Source: Cyanophora paradoxa CCMP329
Taxonomy: Eukaryota > Plantae > Glaucophyta
Assembly: GCA_004431415.1 (NCBI GenBank)
Contig: QPMI01000020.1
Coordinates: 1 to 30,753, forward strand
Direction of reading: 5' to 3'
DNA: 30,753 nt
The translations under genes were made by a program, and so were the position numbers. This document shows positions 3,641-30,753 of the stretch, piece after piece. The notes beneath the pieces are model-generated. The model was given only the letters and a program-made list of their open reading frames with translations. It did no database searches and was not told the DNA's origin. Position 1 is the first letter of the stretch. Every line of letters begins with the position of its first letter.

Positions 3641-3685
3641 GGGGGCGCCCGCCGGCGCCCCGCGGCGTTGGGACGCGCAGGCCGT

Positions 3686-4720: not shown

Positions 4721-4757
4721 AGGGCGACGATCTGTCCGCCTCCGGCCACGCTCGCGA

Positions 4758-8900: not shown

Positions 8901-11270
8901 GTTCTTGGGCGGCGGCCGCGGCGGCGGCCGGTGGCGCTCCCGCGCCTCCCGGCGGTGCGCCGCGGCGGGCCTCGGGGCGGCCGCGCCGAGCCGCTGCATG
9001 ACTCCTCGGCAGACGTCGTCACGTCGATCGCCCCGTTCGTCGCGCGGTACTCGACGGGCACCGCCGCGCGCGGTAGGTGTAATCGTCCGGCCGCCTCGTT
9101 CGAGGGCGTCCAGAGCGTGCCGAACCTGCGCAGAACGACGAGCGGTTCTCCTGCTGGCCGAGGCGAGCCCACCGTCGCGTGAGCCTCGCAAGACCGTCGT
9201 GGTAAGAGGTCGCCCGCCGAGTCACCATCGCCGCCACGACGCTCCGCGCAGGCATGGGGCTCGGCGTGATCAGGCGTATGTGCCAGGGGCCGGCGGAGGC
9301 GCCATCTCCTCCGCTCGCGCGGCGCCGGCGGCCGGCGGCCGCGCGGGGCGACCCCGCTTCGGAGCTCGTCCAACCCTCGCCCTCGTCTTCCGCGGCGGTC
9401 CCGGACGCCACGTCCCGCCGCCGCGGCGCGCTCGCGGCGCGGGGCCTTGGCGTCGGATCCTCCTCTCCTCTTCTCCTCATCCTCTCGTCGTCGTCGTCGC
9501 TCCGACGCGCGCCTTGGCGTGCGCGGCGAGCAACGATGGCGGAGATGCTCTGGGGTCCGAAGATGCGTCGGCACTCGGGACACCAGCGCCCTCGGCGCGG
9601 GCGAGCTCGCGCTCGACGCGCAGGCCCTCCTTCAGCTCCTCGAGCTCCGCCGTCTCGCTCTCCGAGCTCCGCCCTCCTCCCGTCGTCCGAGGCGGCGGCG
9701 GCGGCGGCGCCGGCGGCGGCGCCGGGCTCGCCTTCCCCTCCTCCCGTCCCGTCCGACGAAGACCGCCCTCCGGCCCTCGAGCGCGGCAACCGTCGGCTTC
9801 TCGAGTTCGCCGGCGGCGCGCTCGAGCCAGGCCAGCGCCACGCACGCCTCTTGCCGGTGAGCGGCGGGGCCGGGGTGCGGGGCGGGGCGGCGCACCTCGC
9901 GCTGCGTCTTATTGCAATCGTGTGCATCGTCGCCGTCCGCGGGGTGTGCTGGAGGAGGCGCGCCGTCCTCGATGATGCTGTGCAGACGTCGCCTCGATCC
10001 GCCCTGGGCCGCCTGATCGCGCACCAGGTCGTCACGACGGCGCGCATCGTCCGCGGCGGCACGGCGACGCCGTCCAGCGGCTCATGGCCTGCGCCGGGTG
10101 AGCCCGCCCCGCGCCGGCGGCGCGCCTCGCCTCACTGTTTCGCGAACAGGGTCCAGGACCCGCGGCGAAACGCATCGCCGCCGGAGGTGAAGAAGATGTA
10201 CCCCTGGTCCTTGGCGCCCTCGCTCAACAGGTGACGCCGGAAGCTCTCACGTACTCTGTTAGCGGCTCTGACGCGCCGCGCGGCAGCGGTCGACGGAGCG
10301 CGCGCGGGCGGGCGGGGCGCGCACCTGGAGCTGCTGGGCGACCGGACGATCACGGCGCCGTGCCGCTTCTGCGGATGGGGGCGTCGGCGGCGCGCGTCCG
10401 GCGCGGCGCGGCGGGAGGCCCCGCACCGCCGTCTTGTGGGTGAGCGCGCCCTCCTCGGAGCCGTCTGGATCCGCATGCTCAGGATCGACATGTTCCACCG
10501 ACCGTTGTCCTTGCGCAGCGTCTCGCCGATCTTCAGGTGCTGAGGAGGCCCGGCCGCGCCGGCTGATCGAAAGGAACCAAGCAAGAGAGATTCCTCAGGT
10601 ACTTCGCCTTTTGCCGCGGCCGCTCCTCGGAGCGAAACGCGGCGTAGGCTCGACGCGCCGCGAACGACGTCCTCGAAGCGGACCCACGTTTTCTCGTTCT
10701 CCACTTCCGTTCCGCCTTGGACTCGGCGACGAGCTGGTTCTGAGGGTGCGCGCGGCGCGTCGGCGCGCCCCCGGGGGCGGCGGCGCGGGGCGGGAGGAAG
10801 CTCACCGCAGGTTGCGCAGGGCCTGACCGTGCGGGCCCTCGCTCCCCGCCGGCGCGCCGCCCGTCCCGCGACAAAGGCGGCGAGGTTGATGAGGGTGGAG
10901 GCGTAGCTCACGAGCGTCCGGGCAGCGTGCCCCGCTCCTCGCGCAGGAACCTGCCGCGGCGTTTGGTAAACGCCCCCGCACCCCCCTCCACCGCGCCCGC
11001 CGCCCGCCTCACTTGAAGAAACGAAGCACGATTTCGACCGCGTCGACCCGGCTCATCAGATCGAGGTGAGCTCGCCCTCCAGCCCTCGCGCATGCGGACG
11101 TAGCCCAGCAGCCGCTGAATGATGCCAGTCGTTCGCCAGGCTCGAGTTTCGACGGCGTGCCCTTGCGCGAGGCGTTCAACGGTGCCTGTCTCCACTCCCG
11201 ATAGGCCGCGAGCTGCAGTTTCAGGCCCGACTAAACGCGCCCTCGTGCAGGGCGTACGGCTGCCGCGCCT
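8900..11270 (-). CDS. Tyrosine recombinase (phage-integrase fold), intron-containing, frameshifted
   Basis: Ordered motifs: N-terminal PYALHEG..LQLAAYREWRQAPLNASR..IIQRLLGYVR; catalytic Arg in PARPGLLSTLKIGETL (~10555); Lys in HKTA (~10430-10439); GYIFFTSGGDAF; PRTMRAVVTTW (HxxR-equivalent, ~10045); ARLLQHTPRTATMH-[Y]DCNKTQRE (His 9946-9948). The nucleophilic Tyr needs one T restored at 9921/9922. 3' end approximate. Confidence 0.8.
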
Positions 11271-13366
11271 CGCCGGCCGGGGCGAGCCGGTCCGGGCGAC
11301 GGCGAGCGCGACGGGCGCGGCGGCGAGCCGACGGCGGGCGAGGCGGCGCGGTCGATGGGCGTGAGCGGCGCGCGTCGCCGTCGCTGCCGCCCTCGTCGCC
11401 TCGGCCTCGCTCTCGGACGACGACGAGCTCGCGACGAGGACGAGGGGTCCCCGGCGCCGCCGGGCCCGCGGCCTCGATGGCGCCCGCCCCGGCGGCGCGC
11501 GGCTCGATGCGGGAGCGCGACGGCCCAGCTGTCGACGTCCTCGTCGATCTCGAACAGGCGGAGATCGCTGGTGTCGACGATGGCGCTCTCCAGCAAGGAC
11601 CGGTACGCCTCTCGCCTGCGGGGGCGGGTTCGGCGTGGTGGGGGCGGGGCGGGGGCGGGAGGGCGAATAGAGGCACCTCGTGCGATGAAGCGCGTGTTTT
11701 TAGCGCCGAGCTCGCTCGTAAACGCCTCACCAGACTTTAGGAATCCGATGGAGCCGTCGTTCAGGTACTCTTCCACGAGTACTGCGTCGCCGCTCCAGCG
11801 CGAGGCTCTCGGCGAACCACAGCGCCCATATCCCTGGTGCGCGCGGTTCGCGCGCGTGCGCGCGCGCGGGCGAGGGCGCCGGCCTTACGCAGGAGTGACC
11901 GTCCGTTTGCAGGCGATCGGGAAGCTCCGTGACCCACGTAAACGACGGCAAGGCCTTGCTCGCCGCCCGCCTCAACCTCGGATCCGGCGGCGCGCCGAGC
12001 GAGTCAAAGTACCTGCACCGCCTGCGGGGACGCGGTGCGCGCGGTCGTGGGAGGGGGCGGGGGGATGGGGCGGGCGCGTATACCGGCTCGCGCCGTCGAG
12101 GGCGAGCGTGACCCAGTGGCCGCGCGTCGTCCACGTCCTCTGCGCGCCGCCCTGCCCCCGCCGGTGCAGCCAAAGCACAGAACGAGCCCGCCGTTTGCCG
12201 CGTGCCATAGCGCCGCTTTCGGCGCTCTCGTCGCTCATCTTGGCGTATCGCCGCAGGATCGAGACGATGGTGTCGAGGCTGGCGGGGTACAGGGCCTTGG
12301 CGCTCGCGTTGGGCTTCATGCGGTGCAGCAGGAGGGTCATCACGTTTGCGAGCATCGTATCCTACGCGCGCCCGGGGTGAGTGCGGCGCCGGAGGGGGGG
12401 GGGGGGGGCGGGGAGGGGGGGTACCGTTAGCCACTCCCTCTTGGAGAAGATCGCCAGGCGCCGCGCCGGGCGGGCTCGGGCACCATCAAATCGATCTCCG
12501 CAGGATCGTGGCCTCGGATGGCGAGCGAGGCCCTCTTGAACGCGAGCCGAACGCGGGATCCCGGCCCGGAAGCTTGGCCAGGAGCTGCTCCGCCCCTCGA
12601 GGCTCAGGAAGGACCACTTGCGAGCCGACCCAGGTTCTCCTGCCCCGCCTCGCCGGAGAGCGCGAGGAAGCTGACCAGCGTTCTCGCCAGGGTGGCAAAG
12701 TGGGGCGCCCGAGCGTCTTCGTCGTCGCGAGCCAGCGGTGCGGGCTGTTCTCTCCGAGGCTCGGGTGGCTCCTCGCGATCTCACGCCGCACGCTGGCCGT
12801 GTCCTTTGGGCCGCCGTAGATGCACTGGGCGATGCTGGCGAGCGGGATGTACCAGGGCGAGACCTCCGGAACTTCGAGCCGGCGGACCTTCAGAGCGAAG
12901 AACCTCGCCCCGTCTACGTGGAGCACCTTGACGTCGCACCGCTCGAACGTCTCCTGCGTCCGCCGCTCGATCGCCGAGGTGAGGTCCCGGTAGCAGTGCC
13001 GCAGCCGCGGGCTGTCCGACCCCTCCAGCAGATCGACGCCAGCTCCTCGACGTGCTGGAGGGAGAGGACGCGCGGCGGGCTCTCGGTCGGGTGCAGCTGG
13101 CCCGCGGCACGATCGCGAGCATCTCCAGAGGAGGATGAGGCTCTCCGTCTGCGGGCCGGCGATCGGCCTCGACGCGAGGCCGTGCGGTCCGGTGAGCTGC
13201 CTCGCCGCCTCTTCCGCCGCCTCGGCGGTCCGTTGCGAATATGCGCTGAACCTGGGCAGGGCGGCCGCGGGCCCGGCGTCGGTGCGGAACACGTGAGGCG
13301 CTCGGGCCCGGCGTAGGCGTCGAACGAGACCACCTCCCACGAGTCGCGCGCAAACGCGAGCGACAT
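11231..13366 (-). CDS. Ulp1/SENP-like (clan CE, C48) cysteine protease with N-terminal putative DNA-binding region; probably the N-terminal part of the YR gene
   Basis: ATG at 13364-13366 (gccATG). Spliced KREWLT-DTMLANVMTLLL, GHWVTLALDG (His 12116-12118), YFDSLG (Asp 12003-12005), LQTDGHSC-GIWALWF (Gln; Cys 11889-11891) give the H-D-Q-C order of Ulp1/adenain proteases. One base is missing at the C|GIW junction. Confidence 0.82.
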
Positions 13367-13836
13367 GGCGCCGCTGCGCCCGCGGCCTGCGCGCGCCTCG
13401 ATAGCAAGGGCCTGCGCGCTCCGATTTATGCGTTGAAAGAGGACGCGGGGAGCTTGCGGGTTAGGGGCGGGTGCGCGTGGGCGGGGGGAACGAGCGACTG
13501 TAAAAAAAAAATGGGACGGCGTAAACGGGGGGGGGTACGTTTGGTCCCCGTAAACGCCGATCCGGCCACTCGGATTCCCGTAAACCGTGTCGAGACGATA
13601 GCTTACACGCAGCTGCGGTAGTTTGCTTGGCCAGCAATCCGCACACAAGCTCGGTTCTCGGGTACCTCTATCGGCGGGCGTGGTCGCGCCCGCTTCGGGA
13701 ACTTGCACTTTCCGATCGATTCCGACACCGCCGGGCGTGTCCAAAGTCTCCGGTAAGCATTTCGACCCTTTCGGACGTCGTCTGCGGCTAACGGTCGCCG
13801 CGGCGGCCGCCCGTTGCAGGCGTCGCCTCGGCGGGC
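13367..13836. promoter_or_regulatory. Putative bidirectional promoter between Ulp1-YR and TET/JBP
   Basis: ~470 bp between divergent ATGs (13366 and 13837); lower GC, an A-tract at 13502-13511, three CGTAAAC motifs (13520, 13549, 13579). Confidence 0.5.
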
Positions 13837-16113
13837 ATGGCGGGAGGCTCGCTGAAGAGAGCGCGCGATCGAGAAGGTGATCGCAGCGACCTCGGCGATG
13901 TCAGCGGGCCCGCGGCCGCGCCCGAGGCGCCCGTTCCCATCTGGATGGCGTCGGCGGCGTCCCGCGCGTCGAGAAAGGCGCGCGCCGCGCAGCGCGGACG
14001 CATGATGAACATCTCGCTCGCCGCGGGTGCGGGGGGAGGGTCGGCCCCGGCGGAGCGCGGCGGCGGCGGCGGCGGCCTCGTCTGGATGAACCGGAAGAGG
14101 GAGCTCCAGGCGTCCGGCCTGGCGCTCGGCGGCGCCGCCGCGTCAAAGACGCCGCGCCCGGCGGGCCGTGTACTCGAAGAGTCTGCTCCCCGCACTTTCC
14201 CTCCGCCCCTCCAACGGGGATCCCCGCAGGCCCTACAAACGCGCCGAGCTGGTCGCGACGAGACGATACGGCTATCGATCCTTCGGCCCCGTCCGGTGGC
14301 GGGACCAGGTCCTGTACGTGCGTCCCGGGGTCGCGGGGGCTCCCGCCGCGCGCCCCGACGGCCGCCCCCGCAGCTCCCTTTCGGCGTCGTCCCCGAGGGC
14401 ATGACGGGGCCGCCGGAACGGATGGAGGAGCACTTTGGCTCGGAGCTGGGGCTGAGCCCACCGCCCGTCGACCTGCTCGCCCTGCGCGCGATCGAGGGGG
14501 CCTTTCTCGGGCGTCCGCACGGCCCGCCGCACGCCTCGGCGCTGGCGTCGTGGGCCGTATCTCCCGAGCGGCGCGTCGCGCTGCCCTGCAATCTCCTCGG
14601 GGGCGGCGTCGACTCGCGCTTCATCCGGCAGCAGCGGGCCGAGGTACGGCGCCCCCTCCCCCCGCGCCCCGCCCGCGCCTCACGCGCCCGCAGGGCAAGT
14701 TTGCCGCCTACGTCGCGCCGCTCCCGCCGGGCTGCTCCAAGGAGGACGAGGCGCGGCACGACTACGTCTTGGACCGCGGGCGCAGACGTGCATCTCCCTG
14801 GGCGGCGCCCTCGCCGCCGTCCACCTCCCCGGCCTCTTCCGCGAGGGCGCCGGGATCGAGCGGGTCGCCGCCGCCGTCGCCTGCGCCTCCACGGCCTTTA
14901 CGTTTTCCATCCGCCGCAGCATCATGTACAACGAAGCCCGGTGCGGCCCGGCCCGCCCGCCCCGCCCCCGCGCGCGCCCGGGCTCTGACGGGCCCGCCGC
15001 GCAGGACCAGAAGCTGCTGGACGAGGCGCGCGAGGCGGCCGAGGCGGCGCTGCGGACGGGCGGCTCGACGTGATGCGGGAGATTCTCGCCAAGCGGCCGA
15101 AGAGGAGGCCTCGGCCGCCGCGACCGCGCGGCCGCGCCGGGGCAAGAAGAAGAAGAAGAAGGAGCACGAGCGCGGCCCGAGGATCGTCACCGGCGTCCAG
15201 CGGGCCAGGGCGCGACCGTCCCGATCCCGGTCCGCGGCCCCGCCCCCACCCCCCGCCGAACGCGCGCGGGACGCGGGGCGAGCCGACCCGCCCTTTCCCA
15301 GATCTCCCTGAACCCGCAGTACGGCGCGGACACGAACGCGAACCGGCGGCTGCACCTCCTCAACGGCCACCTCGTCGGCGTGCTCGAGTACCTGTTCCCG
15401 GCCCTCTGCGCCATCGACGTCAAGGCCGGTTGCGACATGGCGGAGATCGCCCTGAAGGTCCTCGAACGGCACCCGTACAGCTACGGTCCGCGAGCGCGTG
15501 TGCGCCGGCCCCGGGCCCGCTCGTGCCCGACGCGCGGGTCGCGGGCGCGCAGGAACCTGGACGATGCACTGGATGAACCCGCCGGAAACGTGAGCTGCCG
15601 TTTACCCCTCGCTCCCTTTCCCGCCCTCGTTGATGCCGACGGCCCTCTAGGATATCAAAGGGCCACCGGGACCGCAGCGACGCGCAGGAAGCCTACGCCG
15701 CCCTCGTCTACTTTCACCCCGAGGGCAAGCGGGACCGGCCCCTGCACCGGCTCCGCTTTCCGGCCCTCGGCATCTCGCTCGACCTAAGGCACGGCGACGT
15801 CGTCTTTATTCGAGTGCGCGCCCTCTATCCTATCCCCCCCCCCCATGCCTGCCGATCGACGGCGCCCCCGTCGACGCCGCGGCCGCCAGGGGCACATGCT
15901 GGAGCACGAGGTGGTGGCGAGCGAGGGCACGGATGCGAGGTTCGCGGGCGTCCCCTCCGCCGGCGCCGGCCCCGGCCCGATTCCGCGCCCCCCTCGCGCA
16001 GGTACTGCATCGTCTTCACGCTGGGAAAGAACCTGAAAGTAGACGCCGATTCCGGGTCGAGCAGCGACTCTTCTACGTCCTCAGATAGCGACTCTTCGAG
16101 CTCGGAAGACTAG
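13837..16113 (+). CDS. TET/JBP-family 2-oxoglutarate/Fe(II) dioxygenase
   Basis: In-phase GT-AG introns 15486-15552, 15590-15650, 15814-15889 and 15940-16001 give YSYG-TWTMHWMNPPET-ISKGHRDRSDAQEAYAALVYFHPEG...LRFPALGISLDLRHGDVVFIR-GHMLEHEVVASEGTDAR-YCIVFTLG. This has HxD (15664-15672), distal His (15905-15907) and 2OG-binding Arg in RxxxVF; Ser/Asp tail, stop 16111-16113. The N-terminal exons carry frameshifts. Confidence 0.87.
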
Positions 16114-16829
16114 CGATAACGTAGGGCGAGCCGCCGTGATGGGAGGGGGGGCCGGGGGGCCGGGATCGAATCGTGATGGGAGCGGGCGGGCGGCCGGCGG
16201 CCGACGCGCGTGAGCTCGGGCGCGCGTTGAGGTTATGCGGCGCGCGCGGGGCGGTCCGGCGCCGCCGGGAATGGAGGGGCCGGGGGGCGGGGCCGGGGCG
16301 GGGCCGGGCCGAACGTTTAGAAGAGGGTCCTGGCTAGGAACTAAAAATCAGGTGGGTGTGGTACGGGCCTGTGCGTGCATTTGCTGCATCTAGTTCCGTG
16401 CGAGCGGCCCCGGGATATCCCATTTTAATTGCCCCTGGACTGGTATGGAGTCTGGACGATTTCGTCTGGTAAAATTCGTGGAGGCGATTGGCAGGGAACT
16501 AGATGCCGTATCGCGCTCCTACCAGCACCCGCTACGTGCACGGGGCGCTGGTTTGGAGCGGACCCGGAATCACTACTATCGGGCCCCCGGCCCCGCGGGT
16601 ACCTGGCAGGAGGGGCCGCGCTTCGACGCGCGCGCGGGGGCCCGCGAGCTATCCCACGCGTAGAGCGGGCGGGCGCGAGGTAATGGGCGTGCTCGGCGGC
16701 GCCCCGGCTGGGCTCTGCTTACGGCGGCGCGAGGGGGCGAGGCTCGCCCGGCCCCTTGCCGATTCGAGGTCGCAGTGCGCGCGGCGGGTGCGGGTTGATA
16801 CGAGGATGCTATTATCCTATAAACGAATT

Positions 16830-17271
16830 ACTATAGGAGTGAGAGTCGGCCTCTGGATCTGGGTCATGATCATGACATGTACATATGCATGCATGTCTCC
16901 ACGTTCTGAAATGTACATGTACATGTCGCTCGAGCTCCGGTCCGGGCCCGCACCAGCTAAGCTTAAGATATGATTACTATTAGGCTTCAAAGGCTTCAAG
17001 GCTTAACTTAAGTAAGCTTGTATCATAGTTTATATAATTATATACGTATACATATCTTGACAGCTACGTCCGACCGTCGGACAGTCATGATCATGATCAC
17101 TATGAAGCTTAATTATAAGCTTGGGAGTCATGATCGCTATAAGACTTAAGCTTCAAGGCTTGTATCTTTTTGGAACGATGATACTATGATATAAATTAAA
17201 TTCCATCTTTCAAGTTTCAATGATCATGATCATGATCATGATCATGATCATGATCACTGAGTCATGATCAT
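16830..17271. repeat. AT-rich palindromic filler with (TGATCA)6 microsatellite
   Basis: TCATGA, TGTACA, AAGCTT and TACGTA chains; (TGATCA)6 at 17221-17256; same character as 1-1790. Confidence 0.75.
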
Positions 17272-17294: not shown

Positions 17295-17755
17295 GGGGCG
17301 AGATCTCGAGTTGACTGGGGGGAACTAGAAACGCTTAAGTTTGATAGCTCCATCACTGAATAGCTTATATTCTGCGGCTCGAGTGCCTCTTCCAAGAGCG
17401 TCGGGAGAAAGGGCCGCGGGGCCGGCGCCGCGCGGCGCTGCGGCGCGCGGGGCGAGATCAGAAGTTGACTGGAGGAGCTAGAAACGCGCGAGTTCGATAT
17501 CTCACTCACCGAATAGCTCATATTCTGCGGGGCGGCCGCCTCTTCGAAGCGCGTCGGGAGAAAGAGCCGCCGGCCGCGGGCCGGCGGGGCGAGATCAGAA
17601 GTTGACTGGGGGAGCTAGAAACGCTCGAGTTCGATATCTCACTCACCTAATAGCTCATATTCTGCGGGCGGCCGCCTCTTCGAAGTGCGTCGGGAAAAGG
17701 AGCGCTAGCCGCCGGGTCGGCGGGGCGAGATCAAAAGTTGACTCGGGGGGGAACT
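17295..17755. repeat. Tandem repeat, ~136-154 bp unit, 3 full copies plus a partial
   Basis: GGGGCGAGATC starts at 17295, 17449, 17586 and 17722, each followed by AGTTGACT(G/C)G; the three full copies continue CTAGAAACGC..AATAGCT.ATATTCTGCGG..CCTCTT..GCGTCGGGA. Confidence 0.9.
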
Positions 17756-18032
17756 CGGTGCGGCCGGGTACGGTTACAATCGCAGCACCCGACGGGGCGA
17801 GGTCCAAGCTCTCGCAATCTCGTCGTTCCGCTTGCTCCGGCGCTGCCAGCAGCTCTAGCGACCCAGCGGCGCTTTCACCGCCGGCCTGGCGCGCCGGGGT
17901 CTCCTGCGGTGGTTCGCGCCTCTCCCGCTCCGCCCAGTGATCGTAGCGGAGGCAGCTGCGCCCTTCCGGGTGGACTTGACGCCCCGGAACGCGTTTCGGC
18001 TCGCTCCCGTCGCGCGGCGAGCTTGCGCATCG

Positions 18033-18270
18033 CCCTAGTGCTCGCAGTCCACCCGCGAGCCGCCGGCGACCTCTTCGCAGTAGCTAAGATGCGGTCAGCC
18101 CTCGATGGGCGCTGTGGGCGGCGGGCGCGGCGGCCCCCGTTCCCCGCGCCCGTGGAACTGGGCCTAGTGCCCGCAGTCCACCCGCGGCCCGTTAGCGACC
18201 TCTTTGCAGTAGCTAAGATGCGGTCAGCACTCGATGGACGCCGTGGGCGGCGGGCGCCGCGTCCCCGCTC
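18033..18270. repeat. Direct duplication of ~105 bp (period ~129 bp)
   Basis: CCTAGTGC.CGCAGTCCACCCGCG...GCGACCTCTT.GCAGTAGCTAAGATGCGGTCAGC.CTCGATGG.CGC.GTGGGCGGCGGGCGC at ~18034 and ~18163. Confidence 0.85.
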
Positions 18271-18298
18271 CCCGCGCGCCGCCTCTCGCTCCACGCAC

Positions 18299-18903
18299 GA
18301 TGATAGCTAGCGGCCGGGCCAGCGCCCGCGCCTCGCCGGCGGCCCTCTCTGTCGTCGCGGAGACGCGGCGCACCACAGGCGGTTCCCCCCCCCTCTCTCT
18401 CTCTACGGTGCGCCGCGCCCCGGCCTGCGCCCGCCCGCCCGCACCGACGCCGCCCTCACGGCCGCCTCGGCGCAGGACTCGCGCCCGCTCGTGCGCGACC
18501 CCGTCGAGGGCGCGCCGCCGGCGGGCCGACCGCACGCGGCGTTGGTCGAGCCCCGCGCGCGCCGCCGGACCCGCCGCCCACCCGCCCCGCCCCGCCCCGC
18601 GCCGCCCGCCCCGCGCCGCCCGCCCCCGCCTACCTACCCGTGGATCAACGGCCCCGGGTCGCCGTTGAACGACGCACCCACGCCCTTCGCCGCGCTCGAG
18701 TTTCATCCCGGCGGGAGCCGGTGACGAGTACGCGTACCCCCGCCCGCCCCATCCCCACCCTCCCCCCCGCCGCCCTTTCCGTTGACCATGCGCCCAGGCG
18801 TTGCGTATTCGTGCGGTCTGTACATGATGGAGCGGCGGCGGGCTTTGCCGTCGGGTACGGTCCCCCTCCCCTCGCCCGCGTCCGGCCTCGTCCTCCCGTC
18901 TGA
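18299..18903 (+). CDS. Small spliced hypothetical protein, convergent with H3
   Basis: ATG ~18299, introns gtgcgc..cgcag (~18408-18476) and gtgacg..cccag (~18721-18797) joining TYPWINGPGSPLNDAPTPFAALEFHPGGSR to RCVFVRSVHDG; stop 18901-18903. Confidence 0.3.
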
Positions 18904-18921
18904 TCCGCGCCCGCTCGCCCG

Positions 18922-19721
18922 TCAGCCGCTCTCCTCCTCGCGGATCCGGCGGCGCAGCTGGATGTCCTGGGCGCGCGCGGCGGCGGCGGGCGTCGGCGCG
19001 CGCGGCGGCGGCGGGCGGCGCGGGCCCCCACCTTGGGCTGAATCGTGATGCGATTCCGGTGAAGGGCGAGCAAATTCGCTCCCCCGAGCACGTTGATGGC
19101 GTGCATTTCGGCCGCTTCGCGCATCGCCAGGATGGCGTCCTTACTCCATCTCAGGTCCTCGGCGGTGAATCCGGCCTCTACGCGGCGCTTCTTCTCGTCG
19201 TCAGCGATCTCTTTCACCTGCCGGTCCGCCCCGTCGCCCGGCGCCCCGCGCCCGGCTCACTCCGGGCTCACCAGGCGCTCAAAGGGAGCGAATCGGATCA
19301 AAGGGTTGAAGGTCTTCTGGTACTTGCGTATCTGCGGGGTGCGTTTACGCCCGCCCCGGGTGCGGGGAAGCGACGGTTAGCGGCGGCGAGCGGGGTACGG
19401 CGTCTAGTTGGGGGGCGGGGGAGGGTGGGGAACGGGCCTCCCTGAGCGCGACCGTGCCTTTGGCGCCCGGCGCGCACCTCTCAACCGCGGCGCGCGCAGG
19501 GACCGCGCGGGAGGGGCGCGGCGGACGCACCTGGGCGGTACCTACGCGCGGCGGTCACGTGCACGCGGCGACGCGCGCGGGGCGGACGGGACGGCGCGCC
19601 TGTGGGGCTTCTTTACGCCTCCCGCCGCCGGCGCGCTCTTCCGAGCGGCCTTGGTGGCGAGGCGCCTGCGCGGGGCCATGCTCCCCGTCGATTTCTTCCC
19701 CGCCTGCTTGATTCTTGCCAT
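18922..19721 (-). CDS. Divergent histone H3 variant, 147 aa (H3-like tail, CenH3-like histone fold)
   Basis: Six exons (19721-19600, 19541-19531, 19457-19438, 19331-19272, 19217-19032, 18966-18922; two GC-AG introns) splice without frameshift to [147 protein letters not shown]. Confidence 0.95.
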
Positions 19722-20132
19722 GGCGACGGCGCCCCCCGCCCGCCCGCTGCGCGCTCGCCCCCTCCTAGATCCGTATTCTCTGGCATGTATTTATCCGTGC
19801 GTGGGCGTCGGGGCGCCGGAGGGGGTGGCGGGTGGGGGTGGGGGATCGTCTCGCGGGGGGCGGCGGGCCGGCCGCGCGCCCGAATTCCCGCCCCGGTCCC
19901 GCCGGAGCGCGCGCTGTCGCCGCGCGTCCCGCTGCGTGCAGCCTGAACAGAGGGCATGCGCGTTTCGTCTGTGATCGGGAGAGTAAATGTATGTGGGGAC
20001 CTGATCGAGGCGCGCGCGCGTGAAGTTGGTATTTGCGCATGCGCGCCGCGGAGCGGTGGTGTGGGTGCTGAATTAAATGAAGACGGTGTCGGTGGGGTAT
20101 ATTTGGTACTCAAGTCCGGCAGCTCGAGATTT

Positions 20133-20928
20133 TCAATTGCAATGTAAACGAGATATCAAACTCTGTGTAGACCGTTTACGGGCCATGCTCCCCGTAAAAC
20201 GCATCGTGGGCGGTAAACGCGGCGGCGGGGCTCGCGGGTGCCTGCAGCGCCGCCCGTCGCTGCTCGTCGCGGCGCCAAAGTAGGAGCTCCTTCCGGCGTG
20301 CGCGATCCTCGCATTTACGCTGCGCGGCGGCCTCGGGTCGGGCCCGTGGCGGTCCTCGGCCCAACGGCGGGTCGACGCCAAGTCGTACCGCTCCTCGAGC
20401 GTTCGGGGCAGTATCCCACGGCGAGTATTCCTCCGGGGACGTTGAAGAGACGGCGGTCGAGTCCGAATCGCTCGGAGAGCGCGTCGGCCGAGTCGGCGCC
20501 CGGCGGGGCGCGGGTCTCGCGCCGCCGGTCGGCCTCGGACATGGCGGCCGCGCGCGTGGTCCATCCGGGTGGCCGGTCAGTTGGGGGAGGGCACGGGCGG
20601 CCGACGCCGGGAGGGCGGCAAACGTCGCCGCGGCTCGGAGTCGGACCGGCGCGCAGCAATGGGCGCAGGTGCGTTTACCGGTGAGCGGGCACTGGCCTCC
20701 GTCGTTGCGGCGCCGGCAGGATGCGCACGCGGAGAGCGTTGTTTGGGAGAGGATGCTGCGCGCGGCGCTCGTTGGGAGGGACGGTGGGATGCTGACGCCG
20801 ATGAGGAGGAGCTCGCGCGTCGTCTGGGCGTCGCCCGCGGAGATGGGCATGGTTATGGGCGTGTCGGTGGCTTTGATATCGATGCTCGAGCGCGCCCCCG
20901 GGACCGTGGATGGGGCTTTTATGTGCAC
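20133..20928 (-). CDS. Zinc-finger protein with XPA-like C-terminal region (frameshifted)
   Basis: CASC...CPLTGKRTCAHC, then AAATFAALPASAARALP, ALSERFGLDRRLFNVP and ERYDLASTRRWAEDRHG, resembling the XPA Zn/DNA-binding layout. Boundaries approximate. Confidence 0.4.
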
Positions 20929-20957: not shown

Positions 20958-21805
20958 ATATGGGCGGGCGGCGGGACCCCTGGGGGCGGCTGGTGAGAGC
21001 GGCCGCCGGCGCCGCCGCGGATACGGGGCGGGCGGGACCCCTCGGGGTGGCTGGTGAGAGCGGCCCGCCGGCGCCGCCGCGGATACGGGGCGGGCGGGAC
21101 CCCTCGGGGCGGCTGGTGAGAGCGGCCCGCCGGCGCCGCCGCGGATACGGGGCGGCGGGACCCTCGGGTGGCTGGTGAGAGCGGCCCGCCGGCGCCGCCG
21201 CGGATACGGGCGGGCGGGACCCTCGGGCGGCTGGTGAGAGCGGCCCGCCGGCGCCGCCGCGGATACGGGGCGGGCGGGACCCCTCGGGCGGCTGGTGAAA
21301 GCGGCCCGCCGGCGCCGCCGCGGATACGGGGCGGGCGGGACCCCTCGGGTGGCTGGTGAGAGCGGCCCGCCGGCGCCGCCGCGGATACGGGGCGGGCGGG
21401 ACCCTCGGGGCGGCTGGTGAAAGCGGCCCGCCGGCGCCGCCGCGGATACGGGGCGGCGGACCTCGGGCGGCTGGTGAGAGCGGCCGCGGCGCAGCCGCGG
21501 ATACGGGGCGGGCGGGACCCCTCGGGGCGGCTGGTGAGAGCGGCCCGCCGGCGCAGCCGCGGATACGGGGCGGGCGGGACCCCTCGGGCGGCTGGTGAGA
21601 GCGGCCCGCCGGCGCCGCCGCGGATACGGGGCGGGCGGGACCCTCGGGTGGCTGGTGAGAGCGGCCCGCCGGCGCCGCCGCGGATACGGGGCGGGCGGGA
21701 CCCTCGGGGTGGCTGGTGAGAGCGGCCCGCCGGCGCCGCCGCGGATACGGGGCGGGCGGGACCCCTCGGGGCGGCTGGTGGGAGCGGCCCGCCGGCGCCG
21801 CCGCG
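20958..21805. repeat. Tandem array, ~60-bp unit, 14 copies
   Basis: Unit GCTGGTGAGAGCGGCCCGCCGGCGCCGCCGCGGATACGGGGCGGGCGGGACCCCTCGGG(G/T)CG; 14 GCTGGTG cores counted; variation mostly 1-bp indels in G/C runs. Confidence 0.95.
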
Positions 21806-22090
21806 TTTACGGGGAAGGCTCTGGGCTATGTAGTGTACCTAAAATCACTAGAAGGTGGCGAACTGATACTGGCTATATCCTAGTTATTCGTACACATGCC
21901 CGACTATAGATAATTTTATACGTTCCCCGTTCTCCTAAGTGTATCATGGTATCCTAAAGATCTAAAAAGATAGTATCCTAAAGATCTAGTCAGTAATTCG
22001 AGTCGTCGACATGAAGACGTACGAAACTCTAGATCTGAATACTTAGTATTTTATCATACCAACTGAAAATATTACACGTGCACGTTTACA
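21806..22090. other. AT-rich core between two GC-rich arrays (candidate origin or regulatory hub)
   Basis: ~285 bp AT-rich; direct repeat GTATCCTAAAGATCTA twice (~21949 and ~21974); bounded by CGTTTAC motifs at 21804 and 22083. Confidence 0.5.
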
Positions 22091-22094
22091 ACCG

Positions 22095-23490
22095 CGCACG
22101 TCGCCGTGGGGCGACCCGGCTCGCATCAACTTCCCGAGGGGTCATTCGGGCCTCCTACTGCGCGGCGCCGGCGGCACGACCTCGCTCCCGTCAGCGACGA
22201 CTCGGCCCTGCTGCCGCCCGCCAACGCGTCGCCGCGGGGCGGCCCGGCTCTCATCAACTTCCCGAGGGGTCCCCCCGGCCTCTACTGCGCGGCGCCGCGG
22301 CACGACCTCGCTCCCGTCAGCGACGACGCGGCCCTGGCGCCGCCCCGCCCCGCCCACGCGTCGCCGCGGGCGGCCCGGCTCTCATCAACTTCCCGAGGGT
22401 CCCCCGGCCTCTACTGCGCGGCGCCAACGGCACGGGCGCGCTCGCGTCAGCGACGACGCGACCTCTGCCGCCGCCCCGCCCGCCCACGCGTCGCCGCGGG
22501 GCGGCCCGGCTCTCATCAACTTCCCGAGGGGTCCCCCGACCTCTACTGCGCGGCGCCGGCGGCACGACCTCGCTCCCGTCAGCGACGACTCGGCCCCTGG
22601 CGCCGCCCCGCCCCGCCCACGCGTCGCCGCGGGGCGGCCCGGCTCTCATCAACTTCCCGAGGGGTCCCCCCGACCTCTACTGCGCGGCGCCGGCGGCACG
22701 ACCTCGCTCCCGTCAGCGACGACTCGGCCCCTGGCGCCGCCCCGCCCCGCCCACGCGTCGCCGCGGGGCGGCCCGGCTCTCATCAACTTCCCGAGGGGTC
22801 CCCCCGACCTCTACTGCGCGGCGCCGGCGGCACGACCTCGCTCCCGTCAGCGACGACGCGGCCTTAGCCGCCGCCCCGCCCGCGTGTCGCCCCGGGGCGT
22901 CCCGGCTCTCATCAACTTCCCGAGGGGTCCCCCGGGCCTCTACTGCGCGCGCCGGCGGCACGACCTCGCTCCCGTCAGCGACGACGCGACCTCTGCCGCC
23001 GCCCGCCCGCCCACGCGTCGCCGCGGGGCGGCCCGGCTCTCATCAACTTCCCGAGGGTCCCCCGGCCTCTACTGCGCGGCGCCAACGCACGGGCTCGCTC
23101 GCGTCAGCGACGACGCGACCTCTGCCGCCGTCCCGCCCGCCCACGCGTCGCCGCGGGCGGCCCGGCTCTCATCAACTTCCCGAGGGTCCCCGGGCCTCCT
23201 ACTGCGCGGCGCCGCGGCACGACCTCGCTCCCGTCAGCGATGACGCGGCCTTAGCCGCCGCCCGCCCGCGCGTCGCCCCGGGGCGTTCCGGCTCTCATCA
23301 ACTTCCCGAGGGTCCCCCGGCCTCTTACTGCGCGGCGCCGGCGGCACGACCTCGCTCCCATCAGCGACGACGCGGCCCCTGGCGCCGCCCCGCCCACGCG
23401 TTGCCGCGGGCGGCCCGGCTCTCATCAACTTCCCGAGGGTCCCCGGCCTCTACTGCGCGGCGCCGGCGGCACGACCTCGCTCCGTCAGCT
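22095..23490. repeat. Tandem array, ~130-bp unit, 11 copies
   Basis: CATCAACTTCCCGAGGG cores at about 22124, 22251, 22382, 22513, 22646, 22779, 22909, 23039, 23169, 23294 and 23422; unit continues CCTCTACTGCGCGGCGCC..GCACGACCTCGCTCCCGTCAGCGACGAC. Confidence 0.95.
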
Positions 23491-23643: not shown

Positions 23644-24154
23644 TTACGTAAACGTTGACATCTCCAGATCGTCTTTTTCCACAGATATCCTGAGAGCAGC
23701 GCGCTTCGGCGACCAGATACCCGCCTTGATCACCGCGAGCCGCATTTCCGCCTGTTTACGACGCCACTCGCGATTCCGCTCCGAGTGCACGCGCGGCAGC
23801 ACGTTATCCCTTTGTGTACTCGTCCAATGGCTTTGTTTCCTTGCACCTCCAGCACCGGCGAGCTTTGCGGTCCGCCCATCCTCGACGACGACCACCACGG
23901 CGCGAGGCCGGACCGCCGGAGTTCGAGGATGCAGCGCGTTAAACGCCTCGCGCATTGCGCGCTTCCGCGCCGAAACGCAGGCACGGCACTCGTACGTGTG
24001 CATTCTGATCTTGGAGGGCGTATATTCCGACGCCGGCTTCCTCGTTCGACAGCGAGTGCACCACGCCTCGACGACGCGCCCTTTATCGTCCCGGACGGCA
24101 CCGCGGACAGGTCCGAGGGGCTCTTTGGCGCGAGACGTTGGAATCGGAATCCAT
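23644..24154 (-). CDS. Small CxxC-x21-CxxC zinc-finger protein (Stc1-like or endonuclease-associated Zn ribbon)
   Basis: WCTRCRTRKPASEYTPSKIRMHTYECRACVSARKR followed by basic helical segments; stop 23644-23646; likely ATG at 24152-24154 needs one frameshift. Confidence 0.5.
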
Positions 24155-24451
24155 GCCGTCGCGAGCGAGGACGTGGGGTGACGGTGACCACGCTCGATCC
24201 CCGAACCAGGACCTCTCCCTTTTATGCGTCCACCCTCCCTCGCCCCTCGCCCCCCCCCCTCCCGCTTCCCCCTCCTGCCCCGCGCGAGCGCCGGGCCGGA
24301 TCGACGCGCGCGTTTACCATGCCCGCGCGCGGGCGACGGACCCGCCCGCACGCCCCCTCCCCCCCCCCCACCCCTTCCATGGGCCCCCCGCCGAGGATCG
24401 AGACCATAAAAGGAAGCGCGCGGCCGTCGCCTCCTTACCCCCATCCCCACC

Positions 24452-26623
24452 ATGCCGCCGCCACGCAAGCGGCAGCGCGCGGCGTCCACGTGCGTCTTCC
24501 CGCGCGAGGTCCTCGCAATGATCGCCTCGCATCTCGACGCAGAGGATCGCGACGCTTTCGCGAGCGCCGCCGACGAGTGCTACGTCGCAACCATCGACGC
24601 CGAATCGACCATGCCCTTTTGGAAGCAACGCCTTGCCGCACGCGCCGGCCCGCTCGTCCGCCGCGCGGCGGGCGCTGGCGTCCCGAGGGCGAGTGGGCGT
24701 GCGGCGCGTCGCCCCCAGCCCCGACGCGCGCTGGTTCGCCGTCGAGCGCGCGCCCGCCTCGCTCGCGATCCAACCCGAGGCGCTCCTACGCATCGACCCT
24801 TCCGGCGCCGTGGACACGCTCCCCGCGGCCGTCCTCGCACGCATGGAACTCCGCCCGCGCCTCTCGGGCCTCTGGGTGGCCGACGACGGCGAAGTTCGCT
24901 TCCAGGCCGCTCCGTTCAACGCCGCGCCGACGAACCGGGGTCGATAGTCTCCTGGCCCGTCGGCGCCCCACCCGCATCCTCTTGGACCTCGCCGAGCACG
25001 CAAACGCGATCATGGCGGAAGCGCAATCGTTTCACTCCAGGCCGGCCCACCGGATTAACGCACGCTGCACCTCTGTTCTATTTACCATCACCGACGCCCC
25101 CAACGCCACCACAACGCCGACGCCATGGCCAACGGAGCGGCTTTGCTCGTGGTAAACGTCGGCGACGGAACCGCGAGGCGCATCGAGCTCGCCCCGCGGG
25201 CTCGCCTCTCGCCAGCATCAATACCCAAATGATCGTCCCGTTTGCCGACGGCTGGCTCATTGCTTGTTCAGAGGAGCGGGAGTCTTCGTCGGCCCGACGG
25301 TCAAACGATGCGATCGCCGGCAGGGCCCTCCGAGACCGGAGCAGAGTCTCCTACCTGGCGGACGCGTTTGCAAGTACGCGCGCGCCGAGGGCGACTCGAA
25401 GGACGAGCTCGGATTCTTTCGCGTGAGCCACGACGGCCGCGCGAGCGAGGTGAACCCCCGCCCCGCGTACTCGCCCTCTACGGCCCGACCTCGTCCACCA
25501 TCGTCGCTTGGGCCGCCGCGGCGCGCGGCCCCGCCGTCGCCGTCACCATCCCCACCATGCAAAGCGGATTTCGCATCGTCGAAGTACCCCCGCGTCCGCC
25601 TGGCTGGACTGTTTGTGAATCGAATGGAACCAACCTATTTCGCACGAATCCGGCGCCGCCACGCGCTCCTTAGAGCGCGCCCGCCATCGCACTTTTGCTC
25701 ATTCCACATCCGCGACACCATGAACGCGCGGCCTCGCGTCCTTTACGAAGCAGCCGCAGCGCGGCGACCCGAGCGCGGGCTTCCCATCCCCGACGGCGAG
25801 AGCATCGTCTCCGGCTCGCTCGCCACCTGCGGCCCGTTTACCGCCTATGCAACGCCGCCGCCGACGGGACCCCGCTGTCGCTCTTCCTTTGCCACCCCGC
25901 CGCGCGCGCGCCCGTCGCCCTCGGGCGCTGGCGAGCGCGGCGTGACCGTCGACGTCCGCTCCTCCGCGCGCGCGCGGGCGTCCTGACGGCCATTGCCCGC
26001 ATCGACCTCGCCGCGGCGCGCGACAGCCCGCTCCTCCGGTGATCCCAAGGCCCTCGCGGACGCGGAGCGCCCGTCAAACGCCAAGGCCGACGCGCGCGAC
26101 TCTGCCGTCCTCCTGGAGTGGTCCGCGCACGGCGACAACGACGCGCCGGCGACCGTCGCCCTCTGGCTCGACCCCGGGCGCGCCGCCGCCTGCAAGAGGC
26201 CCGCACGGACCCGGCCGGCGCCCGCTTCCTGCGCGACCTCGCGGAAACGCGCTCGCCCTCGTCTGCCGCGACGAGCGCGGCCTCGACTCGCTGTACGTCT
26301 CCGACGGCGCCACCGCGACCTTTCGGCACTCGGCATCGCCCGCGCGCGTGGACCGAGGGTCAAACCTGTTTCCCGTCGAGACGGGCTGGTTCGGTACAGC
26401 CTTCGATGGCTGGCGCGTCCTCTTTGTCTACCCGACGGCAAGTTTGCCTTTGTCGAGATCGCGTGATGAGCCGTCGCCGCCGTCTGCCGCTCGGCGGCCC
26501 ATGTACGCGTGCCGCTGCACCGACGGCACGCTGATCTCGCTGGAGACGAGGCGCACGGGCGAGCCGCCGCCGCGCGTCGCTGCTCCGGCGCGCCCGATGG
26601 CACCGCCCGCCGCCGTTGCGTAG
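24452..26623 (+). CDS. F-box protein (frameshifted, no clear introns)
   Basis: caccATG; MPPPRKRQR (NLS-like), then VFPREVLAMIASHLDAEDRDAFASAA (F-box consensus) and FWKQR; downstream beta-strand-rich fragments in shifting frames to a TAG at 26621-26623. Confidence 0.6.
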
Positions 26624-26706
26624 GCCTCCGCGCCCCCCATTCCCAGGTCGAGACCGTTTACGATTAGAAATGTGATTGTATTAAAAATTGAGCGCAACGC
26701 CTACGT

Positions 26707-29700
26707 TTACAAAGCACTGCCGCGGTATGCAAAGGTAACGCTGCGCCGCCGGCCGGCCCGCTCGATCTCGCGGTAGCGATTCGCCTTTGCGGAACACCCC
26801 GGCGCTCTGGGCGGCGTCTTCCACGTCTCCTCCTGCCACTTGTCACCGCGGCGATTCCGCTCTCGGAGGACGTGTTCAGGAACCACCCATCCGTCCCCGG
26901 AGGAAGTCACCGTCGGCTCGCGTCCCATGCACGTGTACGTCTCGAAGAGCGACCTGCAGACGAGGATGTGGTCGCCGCGGCCGCGCCTCTCCGATACGGC
27001 TCGGCGAGACGCGGCTGTGCCGTGCTCGGCCCTCCACCGAACCACCTGCTCGCAGAGGCGCGCACGTCGTCCTCGGTGGCCGCGATTCGCAGTTCGTGGC
27101 CTCCTGGAGGCCGTCTCGGCACATTGCAGCGCGTTTACGACCCCCGCGCACCGTCGTGCCGTTTACGTCCCAATCCAGCACCGGCTCGCCTCTGGCGACG
27201 AGAGCGCGCGATGTACAACGTCCCTGACGTCGTAATCGCACAGGACACCGTCCTCTGGGTCAGCGACGCGCGCGCCTCGGCCGAGAGCCAAAGAACGGTT
27301 CTCCGCGGATACTCGGCTCGGGGGCTCTCGGTAGGGTATCTTCTGATCGTGCGCGCGCTGCTTGGCCGCTTTGATATCCGCCGCCCTCTTCTTTGCACGT
27401 CCCAGCACCGTCGCGCCGCCGCCAGGACCGTAAACGCCAGGTGAGCTGGCCAGTCGGCCGCCAGGGTCGGAACGTGCCGAGAGGGACGTAAACTGTCGAA
27501 CAGAGCGGGTTGCCCGTGCGATGGCACCAAAGTATCCTTGCACGAAAGGGGAGGCGACGTGCTCGATGCCTTGGCGTAGAGTTCAGAGGACGCCTTCGCA
27601 TCCGACTCGACCAAAGCACGCCAGGGCCGACCAAACTCGTCCGCGCCCACTCCAGCACGCGCAGGCGCTCGATCTCGGTGCGGATGGCGTGTCGTCCGCG
27701 CCGGCCGGGTCGAGCACGTTCAAGGGCCCGAGTCCGTCAGCCGAGCGAGGCGCTCCCTCCACGCCGCGCCGCGCTCAGCGAGCGAGCGTCCGGTGCGGCG
27801 CCACGAGCAGCCTGCCGTCACCTTGCGCAGCTCCTCCACGGCCGCCGGCTCGCCGTCGCGCCCGATGCGCAGCACCGTCTCGCCGTGATGCGCTCCCCGG
27901 GGCGAGCCGCCCCGTAACGACGTCCAACGTTCGAAAGACCTCGACGCGACCTCGTCCTCGAGGGCGCGCCGGCCGCCAGCATGGTCGAGAGCTCCTCGAG
28001 CTCGCCGCGCGCCACCTCGACGGCGCCTGCCGCAACGCTCCCGTAAAACAGGGCCCGCGCCTCGTCCCGCACGGATGGCTTTGCGAGCGCCCGGCCGACG
28101 GCGGCGACGGGCAGAGCGTCATCCGCATCCCCGACCCCGACCGCCCTCTTATGCACGCCTGTCGTTCGCCGGCAGTCGGAAAGTTGCGCTCGAGGAGCCC
28201 CGCCTCCACCGAGATCGTCGCCTCCAGCGTGCCTTGGTCGCATCGTCAAAGAGTCGCGCCCCAGACGTCCAGCCCACGCGCACCGCCGAGGTCGCCAACC
28301 CCGGCGGGTCGTGGGGCGCCTCGGAGAGGGCGATTCGCAAGAGGGGCGCCGCCACCGCGGCGTCGGCGACGGCGCCGCGCCCGCGCGCTCGAATCCACGA
28401 CGTGCCGGAGCGCGAGCAACGCCGGGCACCGCACCATCTCCAGCAGTTCCCGAAAGCTGCGGTCCGCGTGCGCCTCGTCCGTAACGTGGGCTGGAGAACG
28501 TACGTCGACCGAGCGCGCCGGGGCGGCCGCCCATCTCCACCTCGAGCGCGTGGAGGAGGTTCCTGAGCTCGGGTCGATTCTTCTTGCCGTTGGATCCTGG
28601 AGGTACCAGACGATTATCGCGGGCGCCGAGCTCCTCCGGCGCAACGCAAAAGGCCTGCGCGGCAAAGGCGAGATCGAGCGACGACGCTCGTAGTCGTTGG
28701 ATCGCCCGGTGGGCCCTGCGAGCCGTAAACAGCCGGCCCGCCGATTTCTCCTGTGAGACGTCCTCGCCGGGGAGGGCGCGCGCGCCGAGGACCGGGTGGG
28801 CGATGACTTGCAGGCGAAGAGCTCGCGTAGCGCCTGGATCTCCTCCTTTACATTTTCGCCGCGGAGCGCTGAAATCAACGACGACCACGCCGAGCTGCCG
28901 CCGAGAGGAGCTTGGCGTTAAAGGACGAGATAGCTGCGGCGCGTGTGCGATTCGTTGGCCATCTGTGGCCTGACGACGGAGGAGGGCGTTTTCCTGCGTG
29001 GGGTTCAACCACTGCGCCGTCGCCACGCAAAGGCGCCGTTGTCGTGCTCCCTGCGAACGCCGCGCCCCTGTCGCGCCGCTCGCGTCGCCGGTGACTCCGG
29101 ACCTCGGCCCGCCGCGTTTCGAGGAGCTCGAGCGCGCCCTTGGCGTTCTCTTTGGGCTGTGTCCCGAGGGGGCAGAAGATGAGCGCGAGGGTCTCGGAAA
29201 AGGCCCGGCAGCGAGGCGTGAGCTGGTACTGGATGTTGACGTCCCCGAGGACGCCTCCGTGCACCACGCAGCAGACGTCAAAGAGCACGTGGGGTTCGTC
29301 CATGGAGCTCCCTTGAGCGACCGCGGTGTTGTAACATATTAAGTCCAGCTCGGCGAACCGGTTCGGGTCGGAAAAGAGCCTGCGATCGCGATCGTCCGAG
29401 TTGCCGCAGACGAGGGCCCTGCGGACGTGCGCGAGGTCCGGGTGGCTGTCGACAACGGCGCAGATCGCGTTGAACTCGTCTTTGGTGGTCGAGGAGACGA
29501 TCACCTTGTAGCCGAGGAGGAGCAGCGCGGCGACGCGCAGCCCGGCTTCAGAGAGCGGGAGCGCGGCCCACGCGTGGCGCATGTCGCCCCCCGCCCCGTG
29601 GGATTTACGATACAGGATGCGCTTTGTCCGCGCCGCGCCGGTCCTCCCCGCGAGCGCCACCCCCTCGTCGTCCGAGTCCCCGCCGCCGTCTCCCCCCTCG

Positions 29701-30753
29701 GAGGCGTTTACGTCGGGTCGTGGCTCCGAATTGCCCATGTCGAGGACAAATCGGAGCGTCTCGCGGTCCAGGTCGGCGTCTGCGAGATAAACGACGCGCG
29801 CCGCGGCCAGCATCCGCGCGAGAGCCTTTGCCGCGGCCGCCTGGCGTAAATCCTTGGCGAGGGTGCCCGACGAGCTGATGATGGCGGCGATCTTGCCGAC
29901 CTCGTCGATGACGAGGATGTGGTACGGCGAGGCGCCCTGGACGAACCGATGGGACGACTCGGCCGTCACGAGCAGGGCGTCCGGCGCATCGGAGCCCGCC
30001 TTTCGCTCCTCCCTGTACCCGATCCAGCACCGCTGCACCTCCCTCCCCTCTTTGTCCACGAGTCCGCGAAACACCGCCCGAAAGTCGTTCCTCTCCTTGA
30101 GCTGGTCGGGATGGGAGCGGGAGTTGACGAACCAGGCGATCGAAACGGTCGTGTCCTCGGCGAGGTTCGCGATCGTTGGGTCCCGGACCACCTCTGCGGC
30201 CGACCTGAGGATGGCCGTCGACTTTCCGGCGCCCATGCCCTCCTCCAGCACGACGTAAACGCGCTCGTATCCTTCCGCAAAGGCGCGCGCAATGGCGTCG
30301 TGGATGAGCCTGTCGTCGACGTAAACGTTTGTCACGTCGGGATCCACGATGATCTCGTCCATCGCGTCGTCGATCTCCCCCCTCTGGGACAACAGACCCC
30401 TCATCCAATCGTCCATCTTGCCGGGCTCCGGGAGCTGAAAGCCCGTCCGCAGCGCGCCCCGCTCCTTGCGGCGCTCCTCTTCATTCAGCGTGGCCCACTT
30501 TTCGGCGATGCCCTCGAGCGTCCAAAAGGTACCCTCGCCGCCGAAAAGCCTCGCCGTCGCCTCGGCCACCCGCTCGATCTCCGCGACGTGCTCGGCAGAG
30601 GCCGTGCCGCACCCCTCGAACGCGCGATTCGCCGTCGCACCGAACCGCGCGGCGTCCATGTAGTGCTCCCGCCGCTCGACGGCGTCCCGACCGAGGTTTC
30701 CGAAGCGCGCCTCGTCGGCGGCGACCTCGCACTGCCGGAGCGCCTTGAGCGCC
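26707..30753 (-). CDS. Origin-binding-protein-like SF2 helicase (herpes UL9 / NCLDV type), 5'-truncated by window, frameshifted 3' half
   Basis: VVLEEGMGAGKST (Walker A, ~30217-30240), WFVNSRS, LLVTAESSHRF, ILVIDEVG (Walker B, ~29900), VYLADADLD, LICYNTAVAQGSSMD, YQLTPRCR: motif order and wording of UL9-like helicases. Frame stays open upstream of 30659 to the window edge. Extension to ~26707 is inferred from protein-like fragments. Confidence 0.8.

Follow-up and report, generated by a model that had tools for sequence, protein, structure and literature searches.

An H3-tailed histone family with a CenH3-like targeting region in Cyanophora paradoxa, and spliced antisense RNA across one of its genes

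The window, a stretch of 30,753 nucleotides of Cyanophora paradoxa DNA, carries an intact histone H3-family gene whose predicted product combines an H3-type tail with a CenH3-like targeting region. This gene belongs to a family in the alga, and the spliced RNA seen over it runs antisense. Our tentative reading (probability about 0.42) is of an element-carried, lineage-specific H3 variant with a CenH3-like targeting region, which would package element DNA, not kinetochores, and be repressed by antisense RNA.

Results

Gene structure

The histone gene occupies the minus strand from 19721 to 18922, with 147 codons in six predicted exons:

19600-19721, minus strand: exon 1, ATG and tail residues 1-40, with T3I, R8K, K14M and K18R
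19531-19541, minus strand: exon 2, predicted, 11 nt, bringing back the ungapped H3 alignment
19438-19457, minus strand: exon 3, predicted, 20 nt
19272-19331, minus strand: exon 4, end of alphaN and start of helix 1, with Q68E; the same exon in database models P0001 and P0002
19032-19217, minus strand: exon 5, 10-residue insert, W84, helix 2 with A107 and L110, and loop 2
18922-18966, minus strand: exon 6, helix 3, acidic C-terminus and stop

The five predicted introns are 54-106 nt long and bounded, in order, by GC-AG, GT-AG, GC-AG, GT-AG and GT-AG. An earlier note on this DNA had placed the histone at 18922-19331, which holds exons 4-6 only; the tail is encoded upstream (19721-19438). Exon 1 is 80-83% identical to the first exons of two other gene models (P0003 and P0004), and exon 5 matches the Pfam Histone family with an E value of 1.2e-9. 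Among the 139 window ORFs examined (182 of at least 100 aa, less 43 of low complexity), the histone ORF was the only one above a Pfam cut-off. Frames at 20161-20850 (minus strand), upstream of the histone, are fused to it in P0001 and P0002; they possibly form a separate orphan gene, and no long contig of presumed RNA is listed there.

A CenH3-like core

The core carries all four of the features that had drawn attention to it. Alignment puts the loop 1 region 10 residues longer than that of H3, and F84W, Q68E and T107A are each present in the predicted protein; T118 of the mature protein is retained. Identity was scored against the commonest H3 core among profile-search matches, and was 34/43 in the tail, 14/19 in alphaN, 14/38 at residues 75-112 and 15/22 in helix 3. 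The low value at residues 75-112 indicates that change is concentrated in the CATD-equivalent region, and this peak of divergence supports the chimera-like anatomy suggested before. CATD comprises loop 1 and helix 2, and PMC7333888 describes it as necessary and sufficient for centromere targeting. Over the whole fold 37/72 residues (~51%) are identical, in place of the near-invariant fold of canonical and replacement H3 (H3.1/H3.3); matched H3 cores from the profile search kept Q68, F84 and the standard loop 1 in 158 of 158 cases.

AlphaFold2, given a 65-row alignment, predicted a helix 1 of 21 residues and built most of the insert as helix, not loop; pLDDT in the P0001 model was 86-98 across residues 61-140. 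The P0003 model, from four rows, had a pLDDT of 52 and was unusable. The window histone retains R83, H113, R116, T118, D123, L126 and I130, residues that presumably serve H4, DNA and H3-H3 contacts. We assume T107 to be the third of the residue positions used in the literature as CenH3 criteria. Loss of these residues, printed as 69, 85 and 118, is listed in PMC4359364.

Rarity was counted in 143 other H3-like rows, 89 database proteins and 54 viral H3s, one row having been dropped. All four features coincide in 2/89 database proteins, one of which is a named fungal CenH3 (P0007), and in 2/54 viral H3s. W84 is found in 4/89 and 3/54, an insert of at least 5 in 3/89 and 0/54, and joint loss of Q68, F84 and T107 in 4/89 and 5/54, respectively. 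Among rows having an H3-type tail, W84 together with an insert of at least 3 occurs in 1/46 database and 0/43 viral sequences. Three viral H3s (L008, L030 and L049) have W84, A107 and an altered Q68 with a loop that is normal or longer by one; as they do so with no long insert, the residue criteria alone can evidently converge.

Tail and C-terminus

The tail had been described as aligning to H3 residue for residue. It does so without gaps, but is not fully canonical, nine positions being substituted: T3I, T6A, A7G, R8K, G13S, K14M, K18R, Q19R and T32A. It is nonetheless far from the divergent N-terminal tail that PMC4359364 states as a CenH3 criterion. Tail lysines differ by type, with K14M in the window gene, K9R in P0003 and K27R in P0004 and P0005; R8 is lost in all types.

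The CENP-C site at the C-terminus of CenH3 is hydrophobic. It is assigned to the last 6 residues in PMC7333888. No such site is seen in the window histone, whose C-terminus is acidic and has no hydrophobic residue after I130, which argues against CENP-C recruitment. On the strength of its tail and C-terminus we do not class the window histone as CenH3; its CenH3-like build is confined to the targeting region.

A multi-type family

The design is not a one-off at this locus. A fold search returned 94 proteins, the top five from one organism, labelled Cyanophora paradoxa. The family comprises four types in eight gene models, one type accounting for four of them:

P0001 and P0002: the window gene
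P0003
P0004 (three identical accessions) and P0006
P0005

Because the window gene is one of a family, the combination of tail, insert and W84 must be older than the locus. P0002 equals the window letter for letter except for frame jumps, three of which fall where short-read contigs add a base; its letters mark it as either an identical copy or a duplicate made by the assembly. The DNA run X6 reveals a fifth type, differing at 16 positions over 97 nt of exon 5 and at 6 over 58 nt of exon 1, and contigs of presumed RNA show this type too.

The four types have in common W84, an insert of 10-11 residues, an H3-derived tail (28-38 of 43 identical) and the structural residues, although fold identity between them is 38-49 of 72. 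In a 40-row tree that left out the insert and the three diagnostic columns, and whose bootstrap had not settled, the family forms one clade (98/95) in which P0005 branches first. A quick 132-row tree, from which 16 duplicate or partial rows had been dropped, gave the clade an SH-aLRT of 94. The best 150 matches of a profile search through 1.84 billion representatives included no family member outside Cyanophora paradoxa. The nearest outside row (86/84) is L008 (3001-3420), a giant-virus H3 with an H3-type tail, W84, C68, A107, F113 and a normal loop, a nearness that is possibly long-branch attraction. Metagenome loci L056-L058 matched the pattern by chance and were rejected as histones. Our literature search found no description of a Cyanophora H3-variant family; the words 'histone' and 'centromer' are absent from PMC6704402, and the main text of PMC5579357 does not name Cyanophora paradoxa.

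Descent, and a possible host CenH3

Single-sequence searches favour Cse4, and the family profile favours H3. Searched against the PDB, exon 5 scored 37.6 bits with Cse4 vs about 30-33 for H3s, and the P0005 fold gave Cse4 as its best match (85.3 bits vs 81.3 for H3). With the family fold profile, all top 60 PDB matches were H3, not CenH3. H3 and CenH3 were not told apart by a fold search, and trees are considered weak for this question in PMC2939574 and PMC3380720. In ours the family does not group with P0007, the single named CenH3 included.

The family might nevertheless be the host's own centromeric histone, with P0005 as best candidate, the window gene a centromeric or stage-specific duplicate, and the neighbours incidental. 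We hold this to be a serious but doubtful alternative. P0005 speaks for it not only by its Cse4 matches and early branching but also by having the most altered tail (28/43) and a hydrophobic last residue; joining of the family with P0007 is not rejected (p-AU 0.17), and C110 is replaced in all four types vs 17/143 other rows. The 94 matches hold no other long-loop W84 protein of Cyanophora, a weak point in its favour as the search needs shared words. Against these stand the H3-type tail, where PMC4359364 would have a divergent one, the H3 preference of the family profile, and a lack of sense mRNA of the window copy in the contigs of presumed RNA. Five types are also many for one essential function.

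Spliced antisense RNA

Contigs of three runs (X16, X18 and X20), each from a different study, delineate a transcript on the opposite strand:

18659-19805, plus strand: spliced antisense transcript; this extent is a minimum
18659-18727, 18798-18854, 18926-19098, 19155-19223, 19275-19338 and 19500-19805, plus strand: its exons, from contig skips

The RNA status of the three runs is guessed; their spliced joints, absent from a DNA run, fit RNA. Five skips lie over the gene, and on the plus strand they read GT..AG (four) or GC..AG (one), with none canonical on the minus strand. A random skip would read canonically with a chance of 0.014, and with five of five canonical on the plus strand and none on the minus we conclude that the transcript is spliced and antisense. 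All five skips were present in X16 and X18 and two in X20, so that antisense splicing was seen in 3/3 presumed RNA runs. DNA run X6 had none of the three skips listed in the joint table; its contig depth of 126-212 over the locus was not taken as copy number. The transcript extends beyond the histone ATG. Exon 3 is lost in one skip and part of helix 2 in another; the contigs keep sense introns 1 and 5.

By contrast with these joints, the sense splicing that had been predicted found no backing: 0/5 introns are spliced in the X16, X18 and X20 contigs. Neither a sense transcript nor a protein from this copy turned up, though contigs drop rare forms and a lack of sense joints does not prove silence. 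The antisense RNA likely represses the histone gene. Cyanophora paradoxa is reported in PMC3700990 to have RNA-dependent RNA polymerases and numerous antisense small RNAs. A protein-coding role for the plus-strand transcript was considered and rejected, there being by eye no ATG-started frame of more than about 50 codons. On opposite strands, antisense intron 19224-19274 and predicted sense intron 4 (19218-19271) cover almost the same interval. An unspliced 628-nt contig of presumed RNA at 17766-18393, beside a 137-bp tandem repeat (17447-17749) and a 111-bp pair, may be an upstream part of the antisense transcript.

Neighbouring genes and arrays

The proposed element-like neighbourhood is supported by a primase-helicase-like gene, an endonuclease-VII-like finger and the absence of H4 and H2B genes from the window. 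The relevant features are:

20966-21814: 61-bp tandem array, 14 copies
21815-22098: AT-rich spacer, GC 0.39, 284 bp, between inverted arrays
22099-23489: about 130-bp tandem array, 10.7 copies
23647-24579, minus strand: ORF with an endonuclease VII-like C4 zinc finger; PHROG matches, E 4.8e-5 to 0.02
28878-30752, minus strand: helicase core of P0096, running past the window end, with Walker A, DExx and C4 motifs

The N-terminus of P0096 may be primase-like, judging from one motif. This replication-type protein of 1769 aa weakly matches the plasmid replication family CyRepA1 (E 0.0066, far below cut-off). Searches of viral contigs, phages, PDB and PHROG gave no relative for its helicase, which also had no match in the record of L008 and no paralog among proteins of 1095-3125 aa. 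An integrated element of plasmid or virus type is the likely carrier of the histone gene. Within the window we found no transposase (hAT included), integrase, capsid, terminal repeat, terminal inverted repeat or target-site duplication (8-bp ones included, and around the arrays too); the element may extend beyond. Nor were the hallmark genes of an endogenous giant virus or mirusvirus (capsid, polymerase B, packaging ATPase) detected in these 30 kb, where many frames are broken by assembly errors. At about 2800-11300 such errors account for the breakage, short-read contigs differing from the window by numerous single-base indels (92 gaps in 2819-5884 and 166 in 6497-9670). PMC12344493 reports virus-derived regions in Cyanophora paradoxa, a point in favour of element carriage, and describes them as silent; an endogenous giant-virus or mirusvirus region would be hypermethylated as well. 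Several genes left of the histone differ from this picture in being covered by contigs of presumed RNA.

The two satellite-like arrays had been put ~1.2 kb away. The distance holds when taken from the ATG (1245 bp to the first array; 1635 bp from the end of 18922-19331), but the arrays are not centromere-like satellite, being 0.85 and 1.4 kb long and inverted relatives around an AT-rich spacer. The two units are related: aligned with the reverse-complemented 61-bp unit, the 130-bp unit scores 71, where shuffles average 41 and 0/500 reach that score. Such an arrangement looks less like centromeric satellite than like replication origins or foldback ends.

These arrays bear on a further alternative, an active CenH3 mimic encoded by the element and acting on its arrays or on host centromeres for segregation, targeting or drive. 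An H3 with a swapped CATD-like region is indeed a centromere-targeting design (PMC7333888), an H3.3-tail CENH3 swap leads to genome elimination in Arabidopsis (PMC4314295), and a replication-type gene and repeats lie nearby. Yet the C-terminus is acidic, the arrays are small, inverted and origin-like, and antisense is the sole splicing seen, all of which make an active mimic unlikely in our estimation.

Discussion

We favour an element-carried H3 variant that packages element DNA. This reading starts from what was observed, namely gene anatomy, family monophyly, antisense splicing and the motifs of the neighbours, and adds five steps that we infer. The window histone would pair with host H4, as suggested by its retained contact residues and the absence of a nearby H4 gene. 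Its rewritten helix 1-loop 1-helix 2 surface would engage another depositing chaperone and other readers, as CATD does for CENP-A, and deposition would follow a route other than that of H3.1 or H3.3. Through the kept tail it could still be marked by host enzymes, with R8K and K14M (K9R or K27R in paralogs) blunting some marks, silencing marks among them. That last step is weak, since unrelated divergent H3s often have K9 (17/46; viral 6/43) or K27 (15/46; viral 10/43) altered; H3K27me3 in Cyanophora paradoxa is inconclusive according to PMC5405695. A C-terminus without a hydrophobic residue would recruit CENP-C poorly, and in growing cultures the gene would be suppressed by the antisense transcription that crosses its start and coding region. 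The outcome would be special nucleosomes built on element DNA, not kinetochores.

A bolder version is improbable, in which a natural, element-encoded H3-CATD family competes with, or has become, the glaucophyte centromeric histone and is checked by antisense RNA. If true, it would mean that CenH3 arose anew from H3 or that a selfish element tampers with centromere identity. Least credible is a captured H3 drifting to a pseudogene with CenH3-like residues by chance convergence, which the three viral H3s, the missing sense RNA in the presumed RNA contigs and the fungal transposon-borne genes ascribed to drift (PMC3538342) would allow, but which is hard to square with an open frame, five canonical-type introns, divergence uneven along the protein, structural residues kept in four types, and an insert held at +10/+11 between folds so far apart.

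The variant reading can be set beside known systems. Like CenH3/CENP-A/Cse4, the window histone has an extended helix 1-loop 1 region, W84 and a fold about 51% identical to H3, lacks Q68 and T107, and has an exon 5 best matched by Cse4. It differs by its H3-type tail, its C-terminal end, the several types per genome and the whole-fold profile of the family, and is known from sequence alone. Engineered H3-CATD chimeras (PDB 5z23, 5zbx) and the Arabidopsis GFP-tailswap (PMC4314295) likewise join an H3 tail to a CenH3-type targeting region or fold; they are synthetic and contain a true CENP-A or CENH3 part, whereas the Cyanophora part is natural and of unproven CenH3 descent. The hAT-borne H3-like genes of Pyrenophora tritici-repentis (PMC3538342) and of Pseudocercospora and relatives (PMC6710886) are similarly multi-copy, divergent and linked to mobile DNA, those of Pyrenophora matching neither H3 nor CenH3. 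Unlike them, the Cyanophora locus has no hAT transposase or terminal repeats and does have introns; its insertion is in the fold, not the tail, its frames are intact and not RIP-damaged, and its five types are diverged where the fungal copies are near-identical. Giant-virus single H3s (PMC9145170; L001-L055) are also solo H3s with an H3-type tail, L008 adding W84, A107 and an altered Q68, and clandestinovirus H3 is described there with a longer loop 1. However, an insert of at least 5 occurs in 0/54 of them, L008 sits among unrelated genes, and the Cyanophora gene has spliceosomal introns.

Whether CenH3 arose from H3 once or repeatedly is stated to be open in PMC2939574 and PMC3380720. A family that keeps an H3 tail with a rewritten targeting region offers a direct test of CenH3 origin. 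If one member marks centromeres, CenH3 is able to function with an H3 tail; if none does, CenH3 sequence criteria yield false positives and mobile DNA owns a nucleosome variant. The spliced antisense RNA provides a handle on control of the histone gene.

Other features of the window

A multi-exon gene at 13792-16113 (plus strand) ends in a part with HxD...H...R spacing (by eye). Its stretch at 15634-16110 may be a TET/JBP-like or other 2OG-Fe(II) oxygenase; the TET/JBP-like reading found no confirmation in Pfam, NCBIfam, PDB or phage searches. Diverged copies of this gene appear in reads at about 14500-14900. Transposon-borne TET/JBP genes are described in PMC12730594, which is relevant only if the TET-like neighbour is real.

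Frames at 11730-12361 (minus strand) show His, Asp and Gln-Cys spacing by eye. They may be Ulp1/SENP cysteine peptidase-like, a reading for which Pfam, NCBIfam, PDB and phage searches gave no match. At 24410-27440 (plus strand) an F-box-like stretch, seen by eye at the start, has no Pfam match. The intervals 1-1750 and 16800-17270 are AT-richer, with 6-bp palindromes at 68 and 106 per kb vs 15-16 expected, and many contigs map to 1-1750.
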